From an uncultured Acidimicrobiia bacterium (GTDB lineage: Bacteria; Actinomycetota; Acidimicrobiia; IMCC26256; JAENVU01): a stretch of DNA of 64,000 nt. A model generated the notes under the pieces. That model was not told where the DNA came from, searched no databases, and saw only the letters and a program-made list of their open reading frames with translations. Shown one piece after another: positions 18,658 to 22,462 of this stretch (its first letter is position 1; every line of letters starts with the position of its first letter). The DNA is taken from the NCBI GenBank assembly GCA_963819945.1, contig CAWFYD010000004.1, positions 20,272 through 84,271 of the forward strand, written 5' to 3'. Both the position numbers and the translations under genes were made by a program.

Positions 18658-20146
18658 TCAGCTCTGCCCGACCGGTCGCGGCGCGGCGACGTCGCCGGTC
18701 TGGCCCCAGGCGGTGGATCCGGCGATGCCGTTGACGTACCAGTGGCTGTTCGAGGGGCGCCACACCGCGAAGTCGGTGCTTCCGTCGCCGTTGTAGTCGC
18801 CGGGGACCGCGACGTCGCCGGTCTGGCCCCAGGCAGTGGAGCCGGCGATGCCGTTGACGTACCAACGACCGTTCGACGGGCGCCACACCGCGAAGTCGGT
18901 GCTTCCGTCGCCCGTTGTAGTCGCCGGGGACCGCGACGTCGCCGGCTCTTGCCGAACGGCGGTGGATCCGGCGATGCCATTGACGTACCAACGACCGTTC
19001 GACGGACGCCACACCGCGAAGTCGGTGCTCCCGTCACCGTTGTAGTCGCCGGGGACGGCGATGTCGCCGCTCTTGCCGAACGGCGTGGATCCGGCGATGC
19101 CATTCACGTACCAACGACCGTTCGACGGACGCCACACCGCGAAGTCGGTGCGTTCCGTCGCCGTTGTAGTCGCCGGGGACGGCGATGTCGCCGCTCTTGC
19201 CGAACGGCGTGGATCCGGCGATGCCATTGACGTACCAACGACCGTTCGACGGACGCCACACCGCGAAGTCGGTGCGTTCCGTCGCCGTTGTAGTCGCCGG
19301 GGACGGCGATGTCGCCACTCTTGCCGAACGGCGTGGATCCGGCGATGCCATTCACGTACCAGCGACCGTTCGACGGACGCCACACCGCGAAGTCGGTGCG
19401 TTCCGTCACCGTTGAAGTCGCAGTACACCGCGGCCTCCGGTGGCGGCGCAGCTTCTGCCGGCAGGATGACCCGCATCTCGTCGAAGACGCCACCGTTGTG
19501 TCCGAACATCGTCGTGGACAGCTCGAGGCGATCGGGCGAGATCGCATACGAGTCGCCGTCGTAGTTGAACTCCATGTCGCGGCCGCCCAACGACGAGAAC
19601 GTGGTGGACGGGCTGAAGATCTCGTCGGTGGCGTCGAGAGCCGCGCTCGTGACGTACACCCCGAGGACCGGGCGATCGAACGTGATCGTCGCGGATCGGG
19701 CGATCCCTTGGGTGAGGCTGAAGGGAAGTCCACTCAGATCCGGGTCGAAGTGCAGGAGGACGCTGACCACCTCGGTCCCGGCGGGCGGCAGGCCGGGACC
19801 GCTGTACGGCGTCGTGATGGCATTCGCGAAGGTGTTCGGCTCGGCTCCGACCCCCAACGTGGGATCGTGCACCGCAGCATCGAACGGGAACGACGGCATC
19901 GTCGGCGTGACAACGCCGCGACCTTCGGGAATCAACCGGATGTCTGTCTGGCTCACGACGACTCCCGAGTTGAGGTCCGGGGCCGGATCCAACACCTCGA
20001 TCTCGCCCGCGAGCTCGCTGACCCCCTCGCCGGCGCCGGGCAGCCGCCACGGCGCTGCGGCCCGGCACTGCGATGGCGGCGCCGAGCATCAGGCTGGCGA
20101 CGAACACCGCTCCCACACCCCTGCGGGTCCTGACGACGAGTCCCAT
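18658..20146 (-). pseudogene. Secreted protein with an unknown ~200-aa N-terminal domain and six FG-GAP/VCBS-like 41-aa repeats; at least 7 frameshifts
   Basis: GGAGGA lies 10 nt before ATG 20146. Signal peptide MGLVVRTRRGVGAVFVASLMLGAAIA. Repeats read GD(I/V)[33 protein letters not shown](P/A)(F/W)G(K/Q)(S/T). The frame rotates inside the repeats. Confidence 0.8.
18688..19420 (-). repeat. Tandem coding repeat, six units of 123, 124, 125, 124, 124 and about 113 nt
   Basis: Unit starts are at 18688, 18811, 18935, 19060, 19184 and 19308. Units 4 and 5 differ at 1 position. An extra g sits at 19152, 19276 and 19400 (exactly 124 nt apart). Confidence 0.9.
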
Positions 20147-20499: not shown

Positions 20500-20800
20500 C
20501 TAGCGCTGAGGTCCGCCCTCGGGATAGATGCTGCGCGTCTCGGCCCGCCGGTTGCGTTGGTCGATCCAGTCGCTCAGGTAGGCCTTCGGGAGCAGCTTGA
20601 TGATCAGCCAGCGTCAGGTACAGAACGGTGTTGATCGCCACGAACATGCTCAGCACGGCGAACCATTGCGAGTGCATGATGCTCTCGGGTAGCAGGACGC
20701 TCGCGAAGAGCAGCACACCGGTCACGACGTCACCTCGCGCGTGTCTCGTGACTCTCGGTTGCGTCGGCGTCAGCCGTGGGTTGCGACGCGTGGTCGACAT
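20500..20800 (-). pseudogene. Small two-TM membrane protein downstream of the GT2 (PgaD-like position), one frameshift near 20600
   Basis: VTGVLLFASVLLPESIMHSQWFAVLSMFVAINTVLYLTLA is followed in the next frame by LIIKLLPKAYLSDWIDQRNRRAETRSIYPEGGPQR, with a stop at 20500-20502. A GTG at 20725, 4 nt after the GT2 stop, is a more likely start than ATG 20800. Confidence 0.6.
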
Positions 20801-22164
20801 GTCCCCACGTGGCGTTCCGGGCGAAGGTGATGTCGAAGATGCCCTTGACGTACACGACGTCGAGGTACATGTCGTAGAGGAGCTCGGGGATCAGCAGCGC
20901 GGCGAGCAGCCGTGCTTTCCAACCGCCGCTCCAGGACGCTGACGACCCGATCGACGACGAACAGGCTTCCCACGCCGAGCCAGAACGGGAACCACACCCA
21001 CTGGTCCGCGGCGAGCAGCGGTCACGATGATGAGCAGCCAGAACGAGCTGAGTGCGATGACCGAGTAGCCGATGCCGAGCTGTTGGGCCCAGTAGCGGAG
21101 CATCGTGGGGGCCGGCCCGTAGGCGCCGAGATTCTCCAGGGCGCCCCGTTGCCAGCGGAGCCGCTGGGTCCACAGGTTGCGCCATGTGGGCATGAGCTCG
21201 GTGACGACCCGGCAGCCGTTCGGCGACGCCATCAGCCCACCGAGGGACTTGATGGCGAGGGTCAGCTCGTTGTCCTCGGTGAGCGCCGCCGTGTCGTACA
21301 CGTCACCGTGGACACCGGGCAGCAGGCCCTCCTCGGCTGTCCGCGACGGTCCGCAGCGCCCGCGCCCGAAACATCGATGCGGTGCCGGTCAGCACGAACA
21401 CGCGCCCGCGCCGGCGCTTGATCTCCCGGGAGTACCGGACGTACTCGTTTCGTTGGAGCTGGCCGAGGAGCGCCGTGGCCCGTCTCGCCGTAGAAGAGAC
21501 CGCCGATCGCCATCAGCGCGCGATCGCTGGTGAACCGCTGAATGCCGGCGGCGAGGAAGCCGTCGTCGAGCACGGTGTCGGCGTCCATGCACATGACGAT
21601 GTCGTTGTCTCCGAACCCACCGAGCAGACCGCGCAACGCCTGGTTCAGCGCCCCCGCCTTCTTGTGGGTGTTGCCCTCGGAGACGAACACCTCCGCTCCG
21701 TGCTCCCGCGCGATGGATTCGGTCGCGTCGGTGCAGTTGTCCGCGACGACGATGACGCGGTTCGGCGCCGGCTCTTGCGCACCGAGGGAGTCGAGCGTCG
21801 CGCCGATCGATGCTGCCTCGTTGTGGGCGGGGATGAGGACGGTGACGGTGACCGGTCCGCCGAACACGCCACGGGTCTCCGCCATGACGAGCTTGGGGGC
21901 GAGCAGCTTCACCCTGGCGTCGGACGAGCGTCGGGATCGGTCCATGACGACCCGTTCGACGAGGGCCACGCCGGCGGCGAAGAGCAAGCCGAGACCGATC
22001 GCGCCGAACACGATGGTGAGGGCGGGCATCTGCGTGTCGTAGAAGACGTGCCACCCACCGAACACGGAGCTCGACTTCGGAGACTGATCGACCGAAGGGG
22101 AGCGCGCCGAAACTGCGAACCACAGCACGAGCGCTCCACCGATGGCGATGCCGGCGATGACCAA
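20730..22164 (-). pseudogene. Processive family-2 glycosyltransferase (PgaC/cellulose/chitin-synthase-like), four +1 frameshifts; N-terminus may extend to about 22400
   Basis: TVLIPAHNEA, VVADNCTD, MCMDADTVL (DxD), TEDNELTL, QRLRWQRG (QxxRW) and C-terminal TM helices are spread over ORFs 21262..22164, 20891..21301, 20770..20997 and 20730..21185. The frame upstream of TTG 22164 stays open (..ATKRRNASGWLGRYIG) without a start codon. Confidence 0.8.
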
Positions 22165-22462
22165 TCCGATGTAGCGGCCGAGCCAGCCGCTGGCGTTCCG
22201 GCGCTTGGTGGCCCGGGCATCGTCGCCGGGACCGGAGCCGGCCGGAGGGTTGGGCCTACGGGTGCGGTCGCAGATCGCGGTCGATCCCGGCGGATCGCTC
22301 GGTGGTGTCGAGCTCGCTGGTTTCGGATTCGGGCGCGGTCGAGCCGCGCGGCGCTGGTGCTCACAACGTCACATCGGCCGGATCGACCGCTCGCCTGATC
22401 GGATTCTCCTTCGTCGGGTCGATTTCGAGCGACCCGGTCGGGTCTCCGCGAGCCGGGAAAGC

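Follow-up and report, generated by a model that had tools for sequence, protein, structure and literature searches.

Within the window, by which we mean the whole stretch of 64,000 nucleotides that was analysed, a gene on the minus strand (18658..20146) ends in tandem repeats of 41 codons, several of which are one or two bases too long. The locus raises the question of whether these extra bases, which make the reading frame rotate through all three phases and return, are present in the DNA of the organism or were introduced when its genome was assembled. As assembled, the gene carries seven single-base insertions and can be read as encoding a secreted protein, with a signal peptide, an N-terminal domain of about 190 aa and six FG-GAP-like repeats.

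Tandem Repeats Finder places the array at 18684-19421, with a period of 124, 6.0 copies, 94% matches and a score of 1172, and the six tandem units span 18688-19431. Cut at the unit starts given in the original prediction, the array yields units of 123, 124, 125, 124, 124 and 124 nt, and both the six starts and the lengths listed there are borne out to the base. Because the gene is on the minus strand, the units are read from 6 to 1. In a MAFFT alignment of the six units, units 4-6 have GGTGCGTTCC where units 1-2 have GGTGCTTCC: the extra G stands at 19152, 19276 and 19400, with a spacing of 124 nt, although it could equally be placed one base away (G19152 or C19151 on the plus strand). On the coding strand the site reads GGA-AC[G]-C-ACC, that is, a Ser AGC or a Thr ACC/ACG codon plus one base.

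Unit 6, the first in the gene (19308..19431, minus strand, 124 nt), has its extra base at 19399/19400, in column m26 (GACGGAAC[G]CACCGACT); unit 5 (19184..19307, minus strand, 124 nt) has it at 19275/19276 and unit 4 (19060..19183, minus strand, 124 nt) at 19151/19152, the family frame being regained after unit 4. Insertion aside, the sole difference between units 4 and 5 is C/G at 19107 vs 19231. Unit 3 (18935..19059, minus strand, 125 nt) has two extra bases, at 18961-62 (m93) and 18944-45 (m106), with GG where units 4-6 have a single G. Unit 2 (18811..18934, minus strand, 124 nt) has CCC at 18911-18913 where the other units have CC (m16; coding strand AAC GG[G] C GAC), and unit 1, the last in the gene (18688..18810, minus strand, 123 nt), is free of indels. 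All these differences had been described in the original prediction, and the alignment confirms them.

The claim that the ORF 18658..19995 (minus strand, 445 aa) stays open while reading the units in three phases also holds. The single difference at 19107 / 19231 / 19355 (GTGAAT vs GTCAAT) removes the third-phase TGA from unit 5, and the ORF is open only because unit 5, which is the one read in the third phase, lacks the TGA of units 4 and 6, an outcome with a chance of about 1 in 3. Little can be concluded from the open 445-aa frame, since at 70% GC an off-frame is often free of stops. Both clusters of insertions total +3, as selection for a real restoration of the frame would give, and the chance expectation for this is 1 in 9.

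The ends of the gene complete the picture. The C-terminal tail ...AAPRPVGQS and its stop (18658..18687, minus strand) match the ...ASRPAGQS* of the ortholog found in another genome of the genus, G009. The N-terminal domain (19432..20031, minus strand) is in one frame and has no indel relative to this ortholog. Upstream of it, the ATG at 20146 opens the signal peptide MGLVVRTRRGVGAVFVASLMLGAAIAVPG..., and the stretch with start codon and signal peptide (20045..20146, minus strand; MGLVVRTRRGVGAVFVASLMLGAAIAVPGRSAVAA) is in a frame that differs from the rest of the gene, while the equivalent in G009 is in frame. Comparison with the frame of the ortholog's ...SAAISAGEGVTGVSGEIEVV located a seventh +1 event between the signal peptide and the N-terminal domain, at approximately 20032..20044 (minus strand), where GCTGCCCGGCGCC has one base too many between ...AVAAA and GAGEGVSELAGEIEV. 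Since this seventh +1 throws the signal peptide out of frame, the assembly does not contain the gene as one intact ORF.

The repeats themselves are of a known kind. On the 445-aa ORF, FG-GAP_3 (PF13517) scores 46.3 bits (cut-off 26.9) and FG-GAP (PF01839) 25.8 bits (cut-off 22.1); on the ortholog from G009 (P0001) the scores are 79.3 and 44 bits, both above the cut-offs. In three-frame translation, every unit has the loop motif GDYNGDG(S/T)TD when read in the family frame, in which the 41-residue unit is PGDYNGDG(S/T) ... (P/A)(F/W)G(K/Q)(S/T)GD(I/V)AV. Trp_leader2 (PF08056) also scores just above its cut-off on the 18658-19995 ORF and on P0001, a spurious match to a W/R-rich repeat peptide. 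The N-terminal domain has no match in Pfam, NCBIfam or PDB, and a PDB sequence search retrieved no solved relative of the protein. A search of 5.8 billion proteins gave this domain 29 homologues at 55-82% identity, which belong to other organisms and whose C-terminal modules are diverse (dockerin, TSP3, InlB B-repeat, FlgD Ig, Ig-like). It looks like an uncharacterised secreted domain.

The comparison of unit number and phase with related genomes, which the original prediction had proposed, gives a simple result. The G009 ortholog is a single frame of 488 aa with a signal peptide, the N-terminal domain, six units of 123 nt without indel and a ...GQS* end. The assembled gene shows seven +1 events and zero -1 events relative to it. 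At the amino acid level the N-terminal domains are 85% identical, or 83% in an alignment over 198 codons, with a dN/dS of 0.18, and the gene has therefore been under purifying selection. G009 holds the only ortholog found in a genus-wide search of 11 genomes, and the protein search returned nothing closer than 82% identity. We also looked for a near-identical strain: metagenome contigs contained no match to two exact patterns (the unit-6 junction with a 2-3-nt gap and a conserved stretch of the N-terminal domain), and a pattern scan of genome contigs matched only the G009 ortholog.

These data bear on the possibility that the gene is a real pseudogene shaped by concerted evolution, in which unequal crossing-over or gene conversion spread a genuine 1-bp insertion from one unit to three neighbouring ones, the other four insertions being either real too or assembly errors. 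Homogenisation produces just such a change, the same in three neighbouring copies, and the arrays are visibly homogenised: units 4 and 5 are one base apart, and in the G009 ortholog the first four units all specify the same peptide. A pseudogene would, however, be expected to show a dN/dS near 1, and stops or deletions besides the frameshifts. Here the N-terminal domain has the low ratio given above, the family frame of the gene contains no in-frame stop, all seven events are +1 with no deletion, and the ortholog is intact. A very recent inactivation of the gene is possible.

The repeat is not unique to this gene. Using tblastn and a nucleotide profile of the unit, we found ten arrays in the genome under study (G000), each of six units and each at the C-terminus of a different secreted protein. 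The nine further arrays lie at C1:292212-292943, C11:5917-6635, C6:65353-66082, C6:67301-68028, C7:35014-35744, C7:40695-41430, C7:43639-44374, C7:52212-52952 and C7:57802-58537, five of them within 25 kb on contig C7. The N-terminal parts of these nine proteins differ, with Ig-like domains (PTISASPNPVTVTAGQ...DLTTGDPDGDPV), one protein with GHEHSYERF and a cupredoxin-like part (FHCHMFIHAHLG). The family of six-unit FG-GAP-like arrays is equally expanded in G009 and in a second genome of the genus, G008.

The number of units is six in all 25 arrays (10 in G000, 4 in G008 and 11 in G009), evidence against either a collapse or an expansion of the repeat. Tandem units that are about 99% identical are a classic site of copy-number errors, and the original prediction had accordingly listed the mis-assembly of a collapsed repeat, in which the true unit number would differ and the odd lengths would be scars of the collapse. 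With a unit number that is invariable in three genomes, the ortholog included, and with flanks, tail and stop that match the ortholog, this explanation is hardly credible.

What differs between the genomes is the number of indels. G008 (completeness 98%) has none in 24 units and G009 (80%) has two insertions in 66, so that the two genomes together have 2 indels in 90 units, whereas G000 (63%) has 28 indel columns in 60 units (17 insertions and 11 deleted columns, spread over eight of the ten arrays). The scarcity of indels in the units of the two relatives also speaks against the pseudogene explanation. The indels of this gene are, in addition, missing from its orthologue and from the paralogues in the better assemblies of the genus.

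The same kind of indel is found in G000 outside the repeats, where it breaks an essential gene. The rpoB gene (G000:C10:206270-209648, outside the window) falls into 7 matching pieces in three frames, while it is one frame in the congeners G002 (1210 aa) and G008 (1181 aa); relative to G002, at 95.5% nucleotide identity, it has five insertion events (+1, +2, +1, +1 and +1), from which the error load of the assembly can be gauged directly. Next to the repeat gene, a GT2 synthase gene (20520-22246 in the window) has five +1 events, at about 20606, 20934, 21017, 21327 and 21471, which are reproduced against the orthologues of both G008 and G004 (open frames of 557 and 540 aa). In G009, the rpoB fragment is also frame-broken, and about seven extra bases are private to its GT2 copy.

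Over 41.6 kb of G000 aligned to G002 with strict affine gap penalties, we counted 64 differences of +1 vs 19 of -1, an insertion bias of about 3.4:1. Among the clean coding insertions, 31 of 39 lie outside homopolymers (about 49% expected, p = 1.6e-4), and the inserted base is mostly a G or C beside a C or G, as in TTGC[G]TCA and GTTC[G]TCG. G000 carries about 1.5-3 inserted single bases per kb, mostly outside homopolymers, and about 4 indels per kb in the repeats. Its general statistics combine high contiguity with low marker completeness (15 contigs, 4.25 Mb, 70% GC, 63.17% completeness). The few-contig genomes of the genus (3-20 contigs, n = 8 including G000) comprise seven at 56-86% completeness and G008 at 98%, and the three many-contig genomes are at 91-98%.

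An insertion load of about 1.5 per kb throughout the genome, rpoB included, with a +1 polarity that is shared by all seven events of the gene, weighs further against the pseudogene explanation, which we consider very improbable. We regard as about equally improbable the related possibility that units of 124 nt are real in a recently inactivated or frame-tolerant gene, where three +1 events would cancel and the C-terminal units come back in frame. Programmed frameshifting and an altered genetic code were rejected because the same insertions strike rpoB and are missing from the relatives. The extra bases are thus very probably consensus errors of a contiguous but error-rich metagenome-assembled genome (MAG), missing from the DNA of the organism. 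Judged from the sequences, the real gene would most probably encode one secreted protein of about 490 aa, with a signal peptide, the N-terminal domain and six in-frame 41-codon FG-GAP-like repeats.

There remains the question of how an error could be identical in three consecutive units. The original prediction had argued that independent random errors are not its source, and this is upheld, since at about 1.5-3 insertions per kb the probability of the triple insertion is no more than about 1e-5. In the arrays of G000, insertions are indeed far from randomly placed: within arrays, 7 pairs of insertions share a column where 0.26 are expected, and between arrays 5 pairs do so where 0.87 are expected (P = 0.003). 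Column m26, which is that of the triple insertion in units 4-6, recurs as an insertion site in an array of a different contig (C7:41282), and m93 is hit in unit 3 and twice in C7:52337-52952. In a second array (C7:57802-58171), column m60 is hit in three consecutive units, as AACGGC[A]CGCTGG or ...[A]AGCTGG.

Such hot columns, common to arrays on different contigs, would be expected if the error were purely one of context-specific base calling or polishing, where each of units 4-6 would have its context of about 10-20 nt miscalled separately, without cross-talk. In its wide form, GACGGAAC.CACCGACTTCGCGG, this context occurs nowhere but in units 4-6, which share it exactly, and the preference of the genome-wide insertions for a G or C beside a C or G would also fit. 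Nevertheless, contexts of 12-16 nt are hit only sometimes elsewhere (1 of 2 for GGCACCACGGAC, 2 of 6 for AACGGCACCTGGTACG), and sharing within arrays far exceeds that between arrays. Some 30 further units contain ...GGCACCACCGAC... and are free of the insertion, and in the near-identical pair of paralogous units at C7:41307 and C7:44251 only one has it. The error is not dictated by local context alone, a fact that can also be claimed for a real insertion in a pseudogene. We therefore hold a purely context-specific error to be unlikely, while keeping it as a serious contender.

The nature of the inserted bases points to another mechanism. In the arrays, 14 of the 17 inserted bases equal the alternative base found at the adjacent column in other units of the family (31% expected, p = 2e-5); since three of these events are identical, they are not independent. 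That the inserted bases mimic variants between units is a further argument against a pseudogene. Genome-wide, the inserted base would be a synonymous variant of the neighbouring base in 17 of 31 cases (44% expected, p = 0.15), and as this is not significant, the pattern of two alleles written in tandem is supported only inside the repeat arrays. In this gene, both insertions of unit 3 are at switch points between the unit 4-6 type of sequence (ACG CCG TTC; AAG AGC GGC) and the unit 1-2 type (ACC GCC TGG; CAG ACC GGC), and at m26 the codon that is written ACGC in units 4-6 is AGC in units 1-3 and ACC in most of the family.

On this basis, and granted that the extra bases are artefacts, we give about an even chance to a coupled consensus error in near-identical units. 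Because units 4-6 are nearly identical, reads from different units, from paralogues or from co-assembled strains would pile on the same columns. A G/C change distinguishes the unit types at the Ser/Thr codon that follows DG (AGC vs ACC or ACG), and a consensus faced with this C/G mixture may have written both variants one after the other, as ACGC. It would have done so in every unit that shares the sequence of units 4-6, the three units having the same outcome because they are almost the same. The exact mechanism by which the consensus was formed can only be suggested from such patterns. Of the alternatives that the original prediction had offered unranked, a systematic error is thus favoured, in a form broadened to a coupled consensus error, whereas the collapsed repeat does not and a real amplification is unlikely.

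The statistics of G000 would fit the kind of product obtained from Nanopore reads with metaFlye and Medaka, which may point to the platform from which it came. G009 is MFD05684.bin.2.27, a long-read MAG of Microflora Danica, whose catalogue was assembled by metaFlye from Nanopore reads alone, followed by a single round of Medaka (PMC12313526). When variant copies are collapsed, INDEL errors and apparent frameshifts are known to result (PMC8445201).

As G000 is a species representative with about 1.5-3 spurious insertions per kb, and more in repeats, it should be used with caution: any frameshift, pseudogene, odd repeat period or overlapping ORF found in it is to be presumed an artefact until reads disagree. 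Non-homopolymer insertions at variable columns of arrays, in which the inserted base is the alternative variant, may help to flag errors in other long-read MAGs. Should the extra bases nevertheless be real, the locus would exemplify, neatly if modestly, the spread of a frameshift by concerted evolution.

Compared with known systems, the repeats resemble FG-GAP and FG-GAP_3 (VCBS-like; PF01839, PF13517; NCBIfam XAC2610-related NF047539) in their 41-residue units and their GDYNGDGxTD, which is like a Ca loop. The arrays of G000 have six units, in contrast to the seven blades typical of integrin-type propellers, a comparison made by sequence only. The locus also resembles tandem repeats under concerted evolution, in that adjacent units resemble each other much more closely than distant ones do, in this gene as in the ortholog; this homogenisation of the units is real, but nothing shows that the extra base itself was homogenised. 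A third likeness is to the residual indels of long-read genomes and MAGs, with ORFs, including those of essential genes, broken and completeness low despite contiguity (PMC8445201; 10.1101/2021.08.23.457338; PMC12313526), with errors concentrated in repeated or variable sequence, and with collapsed variants giving rise to INDELs. The usual complaint about Nanopore data, if this is indeed the platform of G000, concerns homopolymers, whereas the errors of G000 are mostly insertions outside them. The frame-rotating repeat of 124 bases is almost certainly a consensus error in a gene that is, in all else, an ordinary one for a secreted FG-GAP repeat protein.
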